Positions 9,640 to 31,519 of a stretch of 64,000 bases of DNA are shown here, piece after piece. Position numbers and translations under genes: made by a program. Below the pieces are notes generated by a model that worked only from the letters and a program-made list of their open reading frames with translations, did not search any database and had not been told where the DNA came from. The first letter of the stretch is position 1; each line of letters starts with the position of its first letter. This DNA is from Mustelus asterias. Lineage: Eukaryota. The stretch lies in NCBI RefSeq assembly GCF_964213995.1, contig NC_135818.1, positions 78,306,001 through 78,370,000 on the forward strand, read 5' to 3'.

Positions 9640-10035
9640 ACATCTTTACTCTGTATCTAACCCGGTGCTGTACCTGCCCTGGAAGTGTTTGACTGGACAG
9701 TGGAAAGGAAACCCTACTCTGTATCTAACCCCATGTTGTACTTGCCATGTGAGTGTTGGATATAGGACAGTTTACTTTGTATGGCAGTTTGTCAACATTT
9801 AAATCTCAAGGAGGTATTTTCACCTAAGTCTTGCCTCTAGTGTGAATTGCGGCTGGAGCCAGGAGGAGATGTGGCCTGTTGGAGACCCCACAGTCAAGCT
9901 GGAGGGGTCTGCAGGTCAAAGTGCATGTGTGGGCCCAGAGGTTACTCTGCTATCCTGCACTGGGAGCATTTGATGGAACATTATAGAGGGGGATTTTACT
10001 CTGCATGTAACCCCCATGCTATAACTCTGGGGGGC
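9640..10035. repeat. Degenerate copies of the shark ~66-bp minisatellite (CTTTACTCTGTATCTAACCC...GGGAGTGTTTGATGG)
   Basis: Motif recurs at about 9643, 9713 and 9995; the array is interrupted by the left inverted-repeat arm. Confidence 0.65.
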
Positions 10036-10492
10036 CTGAACTGAAATCTGTTTCTGCCACTGCAACACGATTGAGCCACGAACATTCCTGAATGATGACG
10101 TGGGCAACAGAGATTACAGACTGCCACAGTCCAAGAGGTCAGTGTCTCCTGTTTCTACTTGTGCTGTGTTGCTGTGTGTGTGCTGCTAGCACTACAATTT
10201 AAAGCAGGATCTGTTGTGACCGAAGGATGATGAGGTATGTTGGATGCTCTTAATTAAAAGACATGGTGTACATTGGGTGGGAACCTTGCTTGTGTTGGCT
10301 CCAATCTCTTGGTCCCCAAGCTGCAACCCAATGTTCAATGGCTTACGGGGCCCACTCATGTACTTTGACCTGCAGACACCTCCAGCTTGACTGTGGGGTC
10401 TCCAACAGGCCACATCTCCTCCTGGCTCCAGCCACAATTCACACTAGAGGCAAGACTTAGGTGAAAATACCTCCTTGAGATTTAAATGTTGA
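9792..10492. repeat. 145-bp inverted repeat pair (9792-9936 and 10348-10492) around a 411-bp spacer
   Basis: The arms are reverse complements with 4 mismatches counted by eye. Confidence 0.95.
10227..10234 (+). CDS. Exon 1 (ATG ATG AG) of a C1r/C1s/MASP-family protease homologue
   Basis: GGATGATGAG|GTATGT is a phase-2 donor that joins in frame to the acceptor at 11008. A tiny ATG-AG/ATG-TG first coding exon is typical of MASP/C1s/haptoglobin genes. A TATA-like ATTTAAAG lies about 30 bp upstream. Confidence 0.65.
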
Positions 10493-11007
10493 TGGTTTTT
10501 TCCTCAGCAAGGCTGAGAGGCCAGGCCAAATCTCCACTCAAGCATGGTAGTGTTGGGACTCTGAGGAGAGGATAGTTTCAACATGCATGGTCAGGTGTCA
10601 ACTGAAAGGGTTAGGAGTTAAATGCCAAGCTTCAGTATACCAAATGCCATTTTAAGAAGCTGGCAGTTATTTTAAGCAACTTGCAGACATTTTGTGGACA
10701 CTTTTTAAAAATGTTTTCTAGGGCAGTTTTGCATTTTCAACTTTGGCACTGCAGTCTTGCTGAAGGGTAGGATGTCTGTTGCTTTTAAGGCCGGAAAGTT
10801 GTTCTGGATAATGAGAAGGCTCTCATCTAACTCATTAGGCTCGAAAGTCTGAGCAACAATTCACCAAGGGCCTTAGCATCTGGGGTGTGTGGTCCTCAGG
10901 TCAGGCTGGGCCAGAAGTCCTGAAGCTTCCAACCACCTGATCCCACCTGTCCCCATTCCTGGTTTTCTTCAGCAATCATGGCCATCATTCTCTACTCTCC
11001 CTTCCAG

Positions 11008-11195
11008 GCTCCTGACTCTGGTTCTTGCTTTGCTCTGTGACCATTCCATGTCCCAGCTATCCAGAGGTAGATCAGATGTCCCACCAGCCAGTGACCTCCA
11101 AACGACCACCAAACCCTGGGTATCGGAGCAGAATGCCACAGGAATAAGCAAGAATGTGAGCGATGGCACAAGGAATCGGACCTCTGGAGTTCAAG
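11008..11195 (+). CDS. Exon 2: signal peptide plus Ser/Thr-rich N-glycosylated linker of the protease homologue
   Basis: Acceptor tctactctcccttccag|G and donor CAAG|gtaat (phase 1). Encodes (R)LLTLVLALLCDHSMSQ...QNATGISKNVSDGTRNRTSGVQ: a hydrophobic leader and sequons NAT, NVS, NRT. Confidence 0.8.
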
Positions 11196-11199
11196 GTAA

Positions 11200-11590
11200 T
11201 TTCTATCTCTCTCTAAATCTCTCTGTCTCTTGCTTTCTGTCTTTGCTTATCTTTCTTCATTTCTCCCTCTCTCTTACTATCTTCTTTTGTCTCTACCTTT
11301 GATTTTTTTTGTGTCTGCTCTCTCTTTCCCTGCCTGTCCCTCTTCCCCAGATGTTTTCTCTCTCACTGTCTCTACCTTTCATTTTTTCCTCTCTGTCTCT
11401 CTGTCTGTTTGTCTGTCTCTCTCTGCCTGTCCTTTTTTCCACACTCTCTCTCTACCTCTCTATTCTTTCACTTTGTCTAAAATGGTCTCTCTGTTTATCT
11501 CTCTTTCTCCCTCTCTCTGTCTCTCTTTCGCTCTCTCCTTTCTCTCAGTCCCCTTACCCCCTCTCTCTTTGCATGTCTCTTCCTCTTTGG
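11200..11590 (+). repeat. CT-rich low-complexity polypyrimidine tract in intron 2 of the protease gene
   Basis: About 390 bp composed overwhelmingly of C and T. Confidence 0.9.
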
Positions 11591-12389
11591 GTCAGATTTT
11601 CGCTACAAGGCAGGTACTTTTCTGACTCAGCAGATCCAGCTCGATTTAACTTACTGGTCTCGGACGATTTTTGCTCCATGTGGGTGTTGCAGGCGTGGGT
11701 TGTGGGGAAGGAGATGAGGGGGCACCAACCTCACAGATCCTAGATGGTTATGGGAGTGGGTGGGTGCCAAGGCAGGCTGGTTTGAAGGTCTGCCTCAATT
11801 ATCTGGGTCTTCATCATCCCAGTTGTAATAAAGGTGATTGGTTCTTCTGGCCCTTACCCCTCACATCATCTTACAAGACCCAATCCTAAGCTCTACTCAT
11901 AACCTCCATGTTAAGTCATGCCTCTTCCATGCTCACTCACCCAGTACACACAAGATACATAACCAATAAGCCATATAATAACAATGGCAAATGTGGAAAC
12001 TGCTGAGAAGAACAAAGAAATTATCTGTGAAAAATAACTTATTTCTACAACCCCACAAAAGTGTCAATCAGGCAGACAATTAAAGTGTCAATAACAGAGG
12101 CTGCCAACATTTCACATTTCTTAATATTGTCCAAATAAACATTGAAACACAGACAAAAGAGGTCACAGAAAGATCAACTTTTTATAACTGCTTAACGATG
12201 CCAATCAAGCAAAGTCAACAATTCACTTATTAAAACAGATTTCCTAATGAGCTAATGCTTTTATTGGTCTGATCTCATAGCCAAGCATGCATAATCTGGT
12301 CCTTTATCTCTCTCTCTCTCTCTCTCTCTTTATCTCTCTCTTCATCCTACACCCGCTGACTCCTGTTTTCCTTCTCCCCATCTTTGCAG

Positions 12390-13207
12390 TTTGCGGACGG
12401 CCTCCAAACCCGGTGACAATCGTGCAGAGGATAATAGGCGGCAAGCTGGCAGAAGAGGGGAGCTTCCCCTGGCATGTACTGGTGTTGGCAAGGGGTCGGG
12501 GGAGGGCTGGTGGCACCCTGATTGGTGGAGGTTGGGTTTTGACGGCTGCCCACATCTTCTACCCCAAGGGCAGCCTTCGAATAGACCTGGTCCGCCAACG
12601 CAACACCACCCAGATCCGGATGAGCCCAGGCACCAGCCTGCGAGCACGGCTGGCAGGGGCCAACCAGGAGATTGAGGATATCGTGGTGCACCCAGGTTTT
12701 GAGGAGGCACCACACAATTTTGATAACGACATTGCCCTGATCAAGCTGAGGGTAAACCAGGAAGAGGAGGGGGTGATGCCTGCCTGCTTACCCAGGACTC
12801 GGGGGCGTAAGGAGAGTGACCTCTTCCAGCCTGGGAGAATAGGCTATGTGGCTGGCTGGGGGATAGAAGACGGTCGCTTCCTCTGTGACCCGCTGCGCTA
12901 TGTCCCACTGCCCTTTGTCCACCAGAACCGCTGCTTGCAAGCTTTCCAGGAAGCACGAATCTTGGGTTACCGTCCTCCAGTCACCTACAACATGTTTTGT
13001 GCTGGCATTCCCGAGGGGGGTAAGGATGCTTGTGCTGGAGACACAGGTGGGGGCTTCCTAGTACCTGACCCACACTCGGGAGCCTGGTACTTGATAGGCA
13101 TCGTGTCTTGGGGCACTGGTTGTGGGCGGCCGGGACGCTACGGAGTGTACACACGGGTGTCCAGCTACCTCCACTGGATTAACTCCATCATTGCTGCACA
13201 TCCCTAG
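12390..13207 (+). CDS. Exon 3: single-exon trypsin-fold domain, C1r/C1s/MASP-like, with Ser195 replaced by Thr
   Basis: Acceptor tctttgcag|TT in phase 1. VCGRP linker Cys, activation site R|IIGG, WVLTAAH (His57), DIALIKL (Asp102), KDACAGDTGG, IVSWG, YGVYT. No Cys42-Cys58 histidine loop and no introns in the domain, as in C1r/C1s/MASP-2/MASP-3. The spliced CDS is 1014 nt (337 aa). Confidence 0.92.
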
Positions 13208-15289
13208 AGCAAATCTTCCCTCAAACCAACAGCACTGCACAAAATCCTGTTGGTAGGCTTTAGGCTGAATCCGATCTTATTGGGGTTATTATGCGGAGGT
13301 AACAAAATACAACAAATTTTCACAGTCCCCTTGAGGCTCAACCCCATTCCCGCCACTCCAAATTGTGAAGACATCTCACCTCCCCAGTCTGTGGGAGTCC
13401 TCATTTCCCCAAACTCTGATCTCCTTACATCCCCTAAACTATGGGTCTCTTCATCTCCGCACACTGTGGGAGTCCTCACCCTCCAAATTGTAGGCATCCT
13501 CAGCTCTGGCATGTCAGACTAAATGAAAGTATACCATTAAACAGAGGCAATGGAACATATGAACATATAAATTAGAAGCAGCAGAGGATCACTCAGCCCC
13601 TCTGGTCTGCTCTGCTATTTAATAAGATTGTAGCTGACCTGGTTGTGGCCTCAACGCCACATTCTGCCCACCTCCGATACTCCTTTGTTGGTTAAAAATC
13701 GATCTACCTCTGCCTTAAAATTATTCATTGACCCTGCCTCCACCATTCTCTGGGGAAGAGAGTTTTAAAGATAAAGGAATACAAGAGTATTGACGTTATA
13801 ATGCTTGCTTTATGGAACACTGTAAACAACAAATTAATAAAGATCGGGGCACTTTGTGTCCTTTGCAGAATTTCTGTATGACTGAGAAGTGTGATTGGGA
13901 GGATGGGCTGGTGTGTTTTCATGTAATCTCTCTGTTATCTGAATGTGGGTACAGATGGCATCTGAATATTCTAAGATTTCAATCGATTTATGACTTGCAT
14001 TTTCTAAAGCTCCTTTTGGAATCTCAGGAGGTCCTGAAACGGTATACAGCCAATGAAGTGCCCCCGAGGTGGAGTCACTGCTATCATCAGAGCCTTAATG
14101 AGGGCTTGGCATCCATATTAAGGTGTTATGTCCAGAATTGGGACCCACAACCACATCTGAGATCCAACCAGATCATGCAATCGGGGCCTTGAAGAAGTCA
14201 CAATACTTCAGTAGCTCTCACCTGTCGGATTTCCAGTAAAAGCTACGTTTTCTGCTGGTTGACAGGTGGTGGATCAAGGGTGCATTGAACGTTTATTGGT
14301 GTCTCTTTCCCTTCAATGCCTGACTTGTGTGTAGCACCCAGAGATCTGAAAGTTTTGATTTATTGGTGAGATGAGGCAATTTCTGATGCAATCAGCTTGC
14401 AGCTTGTCTCCAGGGATATCAGTTGTTCAACTCCAAGTGATTGTTTCCCTTGAGTCTTTTTTTAATCAATCTGTTCAAAGGATGTAGGTATCACTGGCTA
14501 GGGTTTCTTGACCCGCTGTAGTCCACATAGTGCAGGTACACCGACAGTGCTGTTGGGGAGCGAGTTCCAGGATAAGGACCCGCAATAGTGAAAGAAAGGC
14601 AATACTTTTCCAAATCAGGATGGTGTGTGGCTTGAAGGGGAACTTGCAGATGGTGGCATTCCCATGCATCTGCTGCCTTTGTCCTTCTAGGTGGTAAGTG
14701 TTGTGGGTTTGGAAGGTGCTGTAAAAAGACCCTTGGTGAGTTGCTGCAATACATCTTGTAGATGGTACACACTGCTGCCATTGAGCATCGGTGGAGGGAG
14801 TGACTGTTTAAGGTGGTCGATGGGTTGTGTTGTATGGATGGTGTCAATCTTCTTCAGTGTTGTTGGACCTGCTCTCGTTGCCACAGTAGCCGGTCCAATT
14901 CAATTTCTGGTCCATGGTAACTCCCAAGATGTTGATAATGGCGGATTCAGCAATGGTAATAGCACTGAAGTCAAGGAAAGATAGTTGGATTTTTATTAAA
15001 GATGGTCATTGTCTGGCACTACTATGGGATTGTTATTTAGGACTTGGTTAGCTTGATCACCTGTAGCACCACTGAGCCATTCTTGGTGATAGACATTGAA
15101 GTCCCCCACCTGGAGTACATTCTGTGTCCTTGCCACCCTCAGGGGGTAAGGGGTATGTTGATGGCGGCAGCTGATAATCAGCAGGTTTCCTTGCCCATGT
15201 TTAACCTAATGCCATGAGACTTCATGGGGGTCATAGGTCAATGTTGAGGACTGGTAGGGCAACTCCCTCGTGACTTTATACCACTGTCC

Positions 15290-22910: not shown

Positions 22911-24089
22911 ATGGCGGGATCACAAGGACAGTGGGGACCACCGAAATCCCTGATAAACGAATATATGACTAAGAGGGACAGATTCATTAAACAGGTGATA
23001 AAAGGGGGGAGGAATTCATCCCACCCACTAGACCAACAATGAAAATGGTTGGAAAAAGAAAAGAAAGATAGAACTAAGAAAATTGGAGTTCTCTTAGTTC
23101 ACCAATTGGCCGGATTAATTGAACAAGTCTCAGTCTTGGGTAAGAAATGGGCTGACGACAAAGCAAAAACTAAATTGTTGGGAGCATGCAATAGAGAAAT
23201 AGAAAGAAGAAACAAGACAAAGAAGATAGGAGTATTGTTAATACATCAGTTAGCTGGACTAATTGAACAAGTAGTCGCCTCCACTAAGAAGTGGAGTGAG
23301 GATAAAGAAAGGATTAGGGAGTTAGAATCCAGAGTAAGGGAACTGAAGAAACAAAACCAATTATTAGAAGAAAAGCAATGGAGAGGGGAAACCGTTCCTC
23401 TACCTCCTTATGAGTCCACACAACAGGGACTAACCGCTCTTCCAGAGGAGTGGGAAGTGCCAGTAACACAAGGGGGAACAGATGCGCAGCCAAAAGTAAA
23501 TTATGAACCCTTCACCCCAGGTGAGAGACAGCAGATAATGGTTTCCCTGGGTAAATTACAACCTAGAAGTGCAAACACTAAATTCTGGGAAGAATTAGAC
23601 ACAATCTGGGTAGGACATCAATTACACCTGAGAGACGTACACCAGCTGATCAGGGCAGCCTGTCCAGCAGGTAAGTGGAGGCAGGTAGCAGGTGGACCCG
23701 CCGTTCCTCCAGCACAGGATTATAGTGGGGGATGGTGGACACATGTAGTCACCCTAACATCAGAAATAGATGCCCAACAGACACCCTTCACCCAGTTTAA
23801 GGCAGAAATTCAGAGACTGTTAGGGAATGCTCCTACTAACTGGAGCGGAATAACCACAACAAAGCAGCTAAAAAGGGAAGGAGCTTCTGAATATGGGGGA
23901 TGGTTGTTCAAGGTATATCAGGAGTGCTCAAGACAAGGAGACCCAGGTTGAGGAGATTGAGCGTTCATCCAGGCTTTTAAGGATGAATTCTTTAGTGTTT
24001 ATCAAAACATCCTAAAATTGGGGGTGATCGTGTCCCAGGATTACGATGAGTTGGTAGAGTGGGCTAGTGGCATATCTGGAGCTGGATAG
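22911..24089 (+). pseudogene. gag: ERV gag, interrupted by in-frame stops
   Basis: ATG at 22911 is in frame with the 300-aa ORF, with one TGA at 23040 and further TGAs from 23949. Contains a coiled coil, an LPPY late-domain-like motif and a major-homology-region-like KQLKREGASEY. Confidence 0.75.
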
Positions 24090-26115: not shown

Positions 26116-27530
26116 ATGATTCTTTTGCTGCTTCTCACGACCCTTGCCCTGCTAGTCACGGAGGGGAAGTATAGATGGAATTGTGTAGACTTGGGGATAG
26201 AGCATCACAAGCATCTCTGTAACGATGATTCTGTCTATTGTAACCTTCCGACACATGGAATAAGCCTCTGGGAGGTAACCCGTAGGGACCGCTACTCGGG
26301 ATTCCTTAACCATACCATGTTGCATTTCTGTTGGAGGGGCGAGGTGATTGGCGTCTCCCATGCAATGTAACGTGGTGTAACTGGAATTTTCGGTGTTTAG
26401 CTGAGGGACCGGGATGGACCTGTACCCGGCAACAGCAGAAGTTCTCGGGAGGATGAGTACATCAACATGAGATTTGGCCGATCCATGCGATCATTGTACC
26501 AATCCTCTAAAATCAGACCCCATCACATGAACACTTTCATGTATATGTCTCACTTGTATGCATTACAGTCAAATTTGAGCAAATGCTGGGTTTGCTTACA
26601 TATTCCCATGCACGGAGGAAAGGGGGGAAAGTCCGTCATTCCCTATCCCTTTGTCAACTCCGGGAATAGTAGAATGGATTTTGAATCAGAATGGAACCCA
26701 AGACGGGACAAGGAAAATGACATTTAAAACCCCATCAGGCATGTTGTGAAAAACCAACAAGGGGGGATCTATCTGCTTGGTAAGAAACAGAACCATACTT
26801 GTTAAGCCATAGCTACTGTACCCAGCAGGTTAATGTCATCAGTGGTGCCTGGGCTTTGGTGCAACAGATTACAATTCATTGCCCCATTGCTGATGTCCTG
26901 GTCAGCCTCTCCGCTACTTATATGAGCAGCATGACTGCATATAATGATACCTATTTTGTCTGTGGAGACAATGGCTTCCCTGGGATTGGGCAGGATCGTG
27001 TTATTTGGCATATGTGGTACCCTATATTCACCATGAGTGAGACAGAACGGTTCTTTATGATAGCCTTCCCACTTTATGGGACAGCAAAAGCAGCTCAGGA
27101 ACTTATACATATGGCCTCGACCTTAGAGAGAATTGCAAATGAAACTAGAGACAGGTTCGAGGTGAGCACAGCCTTCTCTGAAGTATCAGCCGAGGTTGTA
27201 GCTATCCGGACTGTTGCTTTACAGAACTGATTGACACTTGATTATGTGTTGGCTTTCCAGGGAGGAATGTGCTCTATAATTGAATCTGAATGCTGCACGT
27301 ATATCCCAGATGATTCGGAAAATATAACTCGTTTGGCAGATCATATCAAATGAGTGGCAAAGACAATACAAGATGAAGGGAGCCAATATCATAACTATAA
27401 CCCTCCGGGATGGCTGGGGCAATGGTTCAGGTCGTGGGGATCATACCTGATGCATGGGTTGATTGTATTAATTGTAATTGTTATTGCTTGTTGTATTTGT
27501 ATGACATTATTGAACACATTGTAATATGGT
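26116..27530 (+). pseudogene. env: ERV env, frameshifted
   Basis: Leader MILLLLLTTLALLV, CWVC motif, heptad region, immunosuppressive domain LQN*LTLDYVLAFQGG, CX6CC (CSIIESECC) and a hydrophobic transmembrane segment. Confidence 0.88.
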
Positions 27531-29582: not shown

Positions 29583-29669
29583 TTAGCTGGAGATCTTGAC
29601 AGGAATCACCCAGCAGAAGATATCGTTTTTATCATCATCCTTCAGCTCCCATTTAACCTCCAATTCAAC
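29583..29669 (-). CDS. NPC2: NPC2 copy B exon 4 (to stop codon)
   Basis: gttaccag|VELEVKWELKDDDKNDIFCWVIPVKISS*; total 149 aa. AATAAA on the - strand at 29373-29378. Confidence 0.93.
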   Translation of the reverse strand, partial: VELEVKWELKDDDKNDIFCWVIPVKISS

Positions 29670-31519
29670 CTGGTAACGGTGGTGGGGGAAAGAAAGGTGT
29701 GGAGAGGATTAAGAGAATCTTGCTTGATCCACTGAAAACCAATTCACTTAAAATCTGACATGCTAATCATTTACTTCTCGAGTATCAGTCTCAATACTCC
29801 AAAGGCTTCGCAATTCAGATGCAATCATAGTCGTGTACAAAACTTTAGAACTATCCGCTCCCATCACTATTTGTCAACTAAAAACCAACTTTTGCAATGC
29901 TTTCCACCCACGTCTCACTTCCCTTTGCCAATTCCCTTTTTTGTCCACCCAAGAAAACTTATGTACAACTTCACTTCCAAAATCTAAACTGTCCTGCCTT
30001 TGGCTATCCATTCATTCTCTTCTGTACCCCTCAACAGCAACCTCACCCCCGTCTCTGATGCCTTAGTCCTATTAAAGCCTATGCAGTCTCTCATCCTGGC
30101 CATTCTCCTGATGCAGCCCTCATCTTTATGACCTCAAGCCTGAGGTTTGGATAATGTGGACAACTGATTTGGTCATTTACTGCCAGATCTGGCTGGATCA
30201 CAAAGCCAGAAACTGCTCCAAAATCATCTTTCAATGCAAAGATAACCTTTAACAACTTTCCTCTTTTGACCACTCTCCCCGTCTCTCCACCATCAGCAAC
30301 AAACAAAGACTTGATCAAGATTAAGACTATTTGATCAGATGCCTGCCATGTCCTTTTTCCTCCCTGCCCAATGAGCCAAGCTTCTAATTTGTCTCCCTGC
30401 CCTAAACTCTTTGCTCTAGTTTCTGTCCTGCCTCTTGCTGCATCCCTCAAAATAATTCCTGCTTGATCTCTCTATCCTTGCAACTGACAACTTCTCTTCA
30501 CCAAACTCCAGTTAAATTGTTGGCTCCCAATTCATACCCATCTTTCCAGAAATTGCCACTCTTGACTCGTAAGCGGTCTCTAAACTGGCAGCTTGCTTGT
30601 CCAACAACCAGTTCTGGGCGAGTTGAAATATCCTCCAACTGAATATTGGGAGGTTCAGAGCTATTGTCTTAGTTTCCTGCCACAAATTCCATTCCGCGAA
30701 TCATAGAATCCCTACAGTGCAGGAGAGAATATTTGGCCCATCAAGTCTGTACCGACTCTGATAAGGCAAGGGTAAGATGCTCTATCCCCGTAATCCCATG
30801 CATTTACTACACTAAATCCCTTAAACTATACATGTAGGGACGCTAAGGGGCAATTTAGCAAGGCCAATCCACCTATTTTGCACATCTTTGGACTGTGGGA
30901 GGAAATTAGAGCATCCAGAGGAAACTCACGCAGACACGGGGAGAATGTCAGACTGTCACCCACACCTGGAATCAAACCGAGGTCCCTGGCACTGAGGCAG
31001 CAGTTGGTGCCCTATTCATAAGCTTGGGTCATATCTGACCCTGAGATGACTTTCCAACCACAAATCTTCATTATTCTTTCCATCTCTAAACCTGCCTCTG
31101 ATACCGAAATCCTCAACCAATCATCTGCTGCCCTTAGACATAATTTTCCAACTCACTCCTGGGAGTGCACAAGAGGCCAGAATTATGAGTGCATACATTC
31201 AGCTGTCTGGGTCAATTCCATCGCCAAGGCTCTCTTTCCTCCTTTAAGATGCTCGTGACCAAGCTCATCATGTGGCTCCGTGCTAAATTTGATTTGATGA
31301 TGCTCCTGTAAAGCATCTTAGGAAGTGTTAAAGCTGCTATAGAAATACAAATTGTTCTTCAAGCTGCCATTAATCTGCAATCCAAACCTGGGGTAAATAA
31401 ATCACAAGCTCCAGTTTTTTCTGACCTGCAAAGTCCTGGTTGCTGTCAGAATTTTCCAACTTGGTTCTTAAACCTTACTTGCTTTGCATTTTAATCTTGG
31501 CTTGTCCAGTTACCAATTA

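Follow-up and report, generated by a model that had tools for sequence, protein, structure and literature searches.

A conserved protease-domain-only C1r paralogue of sharks with threonine at the catalytic serine position

The window analysed here is a stretch of 64,000 nucleotides of Mustelus asterias DNA (NCBI RefSeq assembly GCF_964213995.1, contig NC_135818.1, positions 78,306,001 to 78,370,000 of the forward strand), and it carries a three-exon gene whose last exon encodes an entire protease domain (Table 1). Residues are given in chymotrypsin numbering, for which the protein was aligned with characteristic family motifs and with the Cys42-bearing proteases of the data set. Exon 3 was preceded by a polypyrimidine tract and ttgcag, was free of stops and frameshifts, and lay in an ORF of 308 codons. 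Its product matched Pfam PF00089 (Trypsin) with an E value of 7.4e-47; the top PDB sequence match was human C1r (E 8.4e-50), and MASP-2 was the third. The catalytic motif was GGA GAC ACA GGT GGG, or GDTGG, at 13037-13051, and it occurred once in the whole window (0.01 expected by chance). A sequence-only reading of this DNA had reported this motif with the ACA codon, and retention of His57, Asp102, the R/IIGG activation site, Asp189, Gly216, Gly226 and an open reading frame; all of these were found. Gly193, Asp194, Ser214 and Trp215 were kept as well, as were the Cys pairs 1/122, 168/182 and 191/220, with no Cys at 42 or 58. In the alignment, TMPRSS and coagulation proteases have their Cys42 in the column of Ala42. 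An additional, seemingly unpaired Cys231 of the protein (12884-12886) was present in the relatives' contigs too; 11 other sequences were aligned over this stretch, and 10 of them have Arg instead.

Table 1. Features of the threonine-bearing gene and of its neighbourhood
Feature	Position	Strand	Basis or conservation
Exon 1: 5' UTR and first 8 coding bases (ATG ATG AG, 10227-10234), then GT donor	10146..10234	+	RNA-type contig of a relative
Exon 2: remaining predicted signal peptide and Ser/Thr/Pro-rich spacer with three N-glycosylation sequons	11008..11195	+	Splice joints
Exon 3: Cys1 linker, activation site, entire protease domain, stop codon	12390..13207	+	Pfam, AlphaFold2
Arg15-Ile16 activation site (R79-I80 in the protein)	12428..12433	+	Kept in 11/11 orthologues covering the site
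Ala42 replacing Cys42, no histidine-loop disulfide	12506..12508	+	Ala in 12/12 covering orthologues
His57 and Ile58	12551..12556 (His57, 12551-53)	+	Alignment; His57 in 12/12 orthologues
Asp102	12728..12730	+	13/13 orthologues
Asp189 (S1 pocket)	13025..13027	+	13/13 orthologues
Thr195 (ACA), catalytic serine position	13043..13045	+	Thr in 13/13 orthologues
Gly198, clade-specific	13052..13054	+	Gly in 13/13 vs 2/151 Ser-type domains without Cys42
Gly216	13112-14	+	S1 pocket
Gly226	13142-44	+	S1 pocket
NPC2-like (ML domain)	window 29586-29708	-	Coding stretch
ISCA2-like	L040:4413-4658	+	Coding stretch
LTBP-like (TB and EGF domains)	L033-L039	+	Coding stretches
MRPL55-like	L049:5059-5487	+	Coding stretch

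The coding pieces 10227-34, 11008-11195 and 12390-13207, joined across GT..AG introns, gave exactly the 337-aa protein P0122 (NCBI: complement C1r subcomponent-like, Mustelus asterias), with the C-terminal part of which the exon 3 product was 100% identical. This protein consists of a predicted signal peptide, a spacer of ~45 aa and the protease domain. The hydrophobic N-terminus (Kyte-Doolittle peak of 3.1) is predicted to be a signal peptide; the spacer is 35% Ser/Thr/Pro, and its sequons were kept in orthologues. Transcript evidence came from RNA-type contigs of organisms other than M. asterias. A relative's contig spanned 10146-10232 and was joined to exon 2 at GT..AG, and both predicted splice joints were present in X5 contigs (from another organism, the RNA type being guessed); three of the four runs over 9800-14500, which matched the window almost exactly, showed neither joint, the comparison resting on 40 of the 118 rows listed. 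Transcription, the absence of which would have told against the earlier reading, was supported by spliced RNA-type contigs in a relative. By tblastn no CUB, EGF or CCP exon was found in the window, and no CUB exon was found on contig C18 among the 150 scored of 349 CUB candidates. Because the three-exon coding sequence equals P0122 and the splice joints leave no space, the 337-aa protein is without CUB, EGF and CCP domains. A reading of exon 3 as the last piece of a complete C1r or MASP gene was rejected on the three-exon coding sequence, the splice joints and the lack of N-terminal-domain exons in these searches.

The alignment-based AlphaFold2 model had a mean pLDDT of 89.1 and a pTM of 0.90, and the single-sequence fold prediction a pLDDT of 33. 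In Foldseek the AlphaFold2 model matched trypsin-fold structures at E 4e-25; the top matches were MASP-2, and the TM score to active C1r (1md8) was 0.84. A trypsin fold is therefore predicted with confidence, although such a model cannot show catalysis.

Orthologues were gathered by protein searches and cluster look-ups. Twelve proteins of 12 named shark species were obtained, from Mustelus asterias, Scyliorhinus (2), Cetorhinus, Carcharodon, Rhincodon, Stegostoma, Chiloscyllium (2), Heterodontus, Pristiophorus and Heptranchias, together with the deepest-branching partial record P0129. All 13 read GDTGGG; Thr was found at 195 in every one and Ser in none, which settled the check on other sharks proposed earlier. 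Over a clade tree length of ~2.10 substitutions per site, Thr195, His57, Asp102, Asp189, Gly193, Asp194, Ser214, Trp215, Gly216 and Gly226 were invariant in all covering orthologues (n=13). Invariance alone is common in this clade: of 224 columns 93 did not vary, and among the 10 columns with Thr this held for 4. Near the catalytic loop, His30, Thr45, Gly198 and Leu209 were invariant and clade-specific, and residue 192 was small (Ala/Gly/Val) compared with mostly Gln otherwise. Position 58 was Ile, Val, Thr or Ala, and never Cys. No ray or skate orthologue was among the protein-search matches, which does not imply absence. Two orthologue accessions were absent from a shark skin proteome supplement (PMC10707392).

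The protease exon differs from that of organism B at 19 synonymous sites (dS 0.106) and 16 non-synonymous ones (dN 0.028). The resulting dN/dS of ~0.26 (Fisher p 1.4e-4), approximate because two runs were combined and 40 of 118 rows listed, indicated purifying selection; for exon 2 the value was 0.5 and non-significant. Neutral evolution, which the sequence-only reading had kept in view, was not seen, and its claim of a maintained complement-type gene agrees with this ratio, with the conservation of Thr and with the position of the gene in the C1r group.

That position was obtained from trees of 54, 43, 100, 28 and 27 rows. The rows were selected from a set of 433 extracted domains, to which nine proteins were added later, and most of those dropped were redundant teleost copies. 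The 13 proteins formed a single clade with support of 100/99, the branching inside which follows what we take to be the relationships of sharks. The clade lay within the C1r group (support 95/85 and 96/89, then 96/93), and in one tree it was sister to cartilaginous-fish C1r (P0312, P0332 and P0389, with Ser) at 89/90. It fell outside the cartilaginous-fish C1r clade, indicating that the gene is not a canonical C1r orthologue. Basal branching was not resolved when the long haptoglobin-like branch was included. One clade with C1RL was rejected (p-AU 1e-5) and a C1s grouping narrowly so (p-AU 0.037), while one clade with MASP2 was not rejected (p-AU 0.11). Of the nine later proteins that were scored, the newt protein P0305 (protease-only, C1r-like, Ser195) scored highest outside the clade; orthology with it was neither favoured nor rejected (p-AU 0.35). 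The phylogeny with C1r, C1s, MASP2/3 and haptoglobin that had been suggested from the sequence alone thus places the clade in the C1r group, apart from the canonical genes. By its sequence the gene is a protease-domain-only C1r paralogue conserved across sharks, and its product is predicted to be secreted.

The Heptranchias model P0004 lies on a contig of 40 kb and joins a Ser-type C1r protease domain to the Thr195 gene; a signal-like peptide occurs inside it, and this arrangement suggests a tandem origin. In Pleurodeles, P0305/P0384 stand for a protease-only C1r-like protein with a signal-like N-terminus and Ser195. One gene model fuses this newt protein to an upstream C1r N-terminal region, resembling the Heptranchias model.

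A protease domain on a single exon and without the Cys42-Cys58 loop is a feature of C1r, C1s, MASP-2 and MASP-3. Both traits were present in the shark gene; a CUB-EGF-CUB-CCP-CCP N-terminal region and an AGY-coded serine were not, the codon being ACA. The traits of the trypsin-fold S1A group were found as regards fold, His57/Asp102, Arg15-Ile16, Asp194 and Gly193, with Ser195 as the missing one. The paralogues L002, L003 and L007 have AGT/AGC serine codons, the typing of catalytic serine codons as AGY or TCN being described in available text of PMC6015906. It had been argued that ACA lies two substitutions from AGY, which would speak against a single mutation. This argument is weaker than it was put: a single change turns AGY into ACY (Thr), and the further step to ACA is synonymous. 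The amino acids one step from AGY are Cys, Gly, Ile, Asn, Arg and Thr.

The gene is flanked by an LTBP-like gene upstream and by NPC2 and ISCA2 downstream, as seen in a scan of 284 of 2,989 candidate ORFs; NPC2, ISCA2 and LTBP2 are adjacent in human 14q24. Two window ORFs on the plus strand (23043-23951 and 26784-27230) had no Pfam match and by eye are putative gag-like and env-like retroviral-type remnants. C1s-, MASP3-, MASP2-, haptoglobin- and C1r-like exons were found on other contigs, a MASP2-like CUB exon lying near TARDBP on C22. The Thr195 gene was rejected as the MASP2, MASP3, C1s or haptoglobin gene of the genome, each of which has a separate locus. C1r-like CUB/EGF/CCP exons lie on the small unplaced contigs C4183 and C3217, and a Ser-type C1r protease exon matching them was not found in the genome searches.

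Two further loci of this genome are non-Ser copies. L004 (G000:C2791:29551-30294) belongs to the C1s group and has Gly195 and Ser57; a Ser-type C1s-like exon is located 21 kb away, and its own Cys at both 42 and 58 is unlike other C1s-group domains in the trees. L017 (G000:C3954:22016-22666) is a protease exon with Arg195, Asn189, Tyr215, Asp216 and Ala226, which we take to be haptoglobin-like on characteristic motifs; its start and remainder are in different frames, an apparent frameshift in which an assembly error is possible. Since the genome thus has another gene of haptoglobin type, and one whose S1 pocket is destroyed, the haptoglobin identity considered in the sequence-only reading is not supported for the Thr195 gene.

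Two things were overlooked in that reading: the complete lack of CUB, EGF and CCP domains, and the missing Cys42-Cys58 bond, whose absence is precisely what has been reported to make Thr195 workable in trypsin. Baird 2006 is reportedly the primary paper behind engineered Thr195 trypsin. C42A and C58A/V together with S195T are described as turning trypsin into a threonine protease (PMC3835919, seen in excerpt), and C42A/C58A restored part of the S195T deficit in thrombin, whereas on amide substrates of trypsin S195T removal of the bond helped only 'marginally' (both from available text of PMC8695361). As far as the accessible part of a preprint goes (bioRxiv 10.64898/2026.10.13.758922), S195T lowered thrombin activity but did not abolish it, and Val213, Ser214 and Gly216 touched the Thr methyl in thrombin simulations. 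These three residues were unchanged in the shark clade, which counts against the enzyme reading. Among Ser-type relatives (n=151), Ala42/Ala58 occurred in 14, Ala42/Val58 in 12 and Gly42/Val58 in 55, and Ala42 as a Thr-specific adaptation was therefore rejected. Because the disulfide-free background is inherited family-wide and is also found in Ser-type relatives, it permits Thr without proving adaptation.

Characin, milkfish and newt copies acquired Thr195 on their own, and this recurrence, with Thr a single step from AGY, speaks against the enzyme reading. The independent C1r-type copies with Thr195 are P0144 and P0179 (characins), P0170 and P0135; the two characin copies have the remaining machinery intact and Ser42, and P0170 is without His57.

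We give a chance just short of even to the reading that the product is a slow but true threonine protease of trypsin specificity. From the established gene structure, conservation, residues and tree position, we infer the following for secretion, activation, catalysis and substrate. Another protease would cut the secreted zymogen at Arg15-Ile16, and the two chains would remain joined via Cys1-Cys122. Ile16 would then pair with Asp194, by which the oxyanion hole would be formed, and the pocket of Asp189, Gly216 and Gly226 would accept Arg or Lys. The Thr hydroxyl would be activated by His57-Asp102, and Thr may be tolerated because Ala42 and the non-Cys residue at 58 free the space usually filled by the Cys42-Cys58 bond. 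Without CUB-EGF-CUB or CCP domains the protein would not enter C1q or MBL complexes, and it might work unattached, with one or a few substrates, for example in proprotein processing as mammalian C1r-LP does. Against activity of this kind it counts that C1-family enzymes depend on CCP domains for substrate binding. As to origin, a C1r protease exon was likely duplicated in a cartilaginous-fish ancestor, and a single AGY to ACY change would have followed in a family already without the disulfide. A stronger version, in which cartilaginous fishes have maintained a fully functional His-Asp-Thr protease over hundreds of millions of years and His30, Thr45, the small residue 192, Gly198 and Leu209 have tuned it into an efficient enzyme with its own substrate in immunity or processing, seems unlikely to us.

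Nearly as much weight, though somewhat under half, is given to a maintained pseudoprotease, whose cleft would bind an Arg/Lys loop of a substrate, a serpin or a pathogen protease inhibitor with negligible turnover, as a decoy, trap or binder in the way of haptoglobin, with Thr retained because it packs or binds. The C1r/C1s family repeatedly yields non-Ser copies: there were 30 other non-Ser C1r/C1s-type domains, and in 14 of them, mostly with Gly195, the 11 remaining machinery residues were all intact. Because of these 14, retention of the machinery does not discriminate between an enzyme and a decoy. The two non-Ser copies L004 and L017 in the same genome point the same way, as do salmonid/esocid and Denticeps records, whose Gly195 clades retain His57 and Asp102. 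A sister relation to the haptoglobin-like L017 was not rejected (p-AU 0.40), on a long (2.0) branch, and a short protease-domain-only build occurs in fish haptoglobins. Natural Thr195 trypsin-fold proteases are called undocumented, and engineered ones are poor, in the available parts of a 2021 paper (PMC8695361) and of a 2026 preprint (bioRxiv 10.64898/2026.10.13.758922). The record of substitutions argues against a dead protein. In a chemically dead otophysan clade (Gly/Ala195), 57 (His/Asn/Ser) and 195 both varied within 0.76 substitutions per site, and in three dead clades pooled there were 3 changes in 1.31, versus 0 in 2.10 at 57, 102 and 195 in the shark clade, with p about 0.06 on changes counted by eye. 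Thr to Ala at 195 needs one transition, yet it was seen in 0 of 13 orthologues. Long-lived dead paralogues have decayed further, at the S1 pocket in L017 (Asn189, Tyr215, Asp216, Ala226) and at Ser57 in L004, and unlike that of L017 the S1 pocket of the shark protein is intact. The pseudoprotease and the threonine protease named in the sequence-only reading were the right alternatives.

Between these two lies a special case, a single-turnover or ester-type enzyme or trap, in which the Thr195 acyl-enzyme would be released slowly and would serve covalent capture or one cut of the protein itself or of one partner. It would account for selection on both the hydroxyl and an intact triad even if turnover is slow, and it is compatible with the covalent binding of the inhibitor PPACK by Thr195 thrombin and with the marginal rescue of amide hydrolysis (both in available text of PMC8695361); we consider it improbable. 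A sequencing error, private allele, RNA-edited site or decaying pseudogene has next to no probability, for although the transcript support comes from contigs of other organisms, ACA was identical in 4/4 runs aligned over 12900-13260 (one DNA run, X11, possibly the source of the assembly, and RNA-type contigs of two other organisms, from three studies), which with Thr in 13/13 orthologues excludes error, allele or editing at the codon, and the joints are spliced and dN/dS is 0.26.

Why trypsin-fold enzymes use Ser rather than Thr is a standing question of enzymology. The shark gene offers a conserved natural Thr195 case in the disulfide-free background singled out by engineering work, and should the product be a functional enzyme, nature would have reached the engineers' solution of Ala42, non-Cys58 and Thr195. 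If inactive, it would still be an undescribed shark-wide complement-derived pseudoenzyme, mislabelled C1r, MASP2 or haptoglobin in databases. No paper on the gene was found in the full-text literature searched, outside which most subscription papers lie; Redmond et al. 2018, said to deal with shark haptoglobin and MASP evolution, could mention it. Judged from its sequence, the gene is a conserved, apparently undescribed protease-only C1r paralogue with a His-Asp-Thr triad and a disulfide-free active site.

In build the shark protein, as predicted, is like a trypsin-specificity complement protease, but it is not C1r proper, having neither the N-terminal domains nor Ser195. Complement C1r (PDB 1md8/1gpz) likewise has a single-exon protease domain without Cys42-Cys58, a trypsin-type S1 pocket and an Arg-Ile activation site; the shark protein differs from it in lacking CUB1-EGF-CUB2-CCP1-CCP2 and in Thr195, is about 40-46% identical to it, and is encoded apart from canonical C1r, a separate gene with its C1r-like CUB/CCP exons on C4183 and C3217. 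MASP-2, to which the shark model is closest in Foldseek, is often Ala42/Ala58, but the trees prefer C1r. Haptoglobin is a dead protease of the C1r-type family, and NCBI calls several of the shark orthologues 'haptoglobin-like'; the haptoglobin-like L017 has a degenerate triad and S1 pocket, whereas the shark Thr195 protein differs only at 195. C1r-LP (C1RL) is likewise a shortened C1r paralogue and illustrates which tasks a C1r of reduced length can take on; it has a CUB domain, which the shark gene is without, and in the records examined Ser195. Mammalian C1r-LP is described as cleaving prohaptoglobin in the endoplasmic reticulum (PMC5856381, in part). TSP50 (PRSS50) is the sole, contested claim of a natural Thr195 protease; accessible passages of PMC3344824 describe it as a trypsin-like protein of the ER/membrane that is expressed in testis and tumours and whose catalytic residue is Thr, its T310A mutant being protease-dead. 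Both proteins have Thr195, in the shark with His57/Asp102, and going by the description of TSP50 the shark residue would be of independent origin. Trypsin engineered as C42A/C58A(V)/S195T and thrombin engineered as C42A/C58A/S195T share their residue pattern with the shark clade, which has Ala42, Ile/Val/Thr/Ala58 and Thr195; the shark protein differs from them in being natural and long conserved and in its additional His30, Thr45, small residue 192, Gly198 and Leu209.
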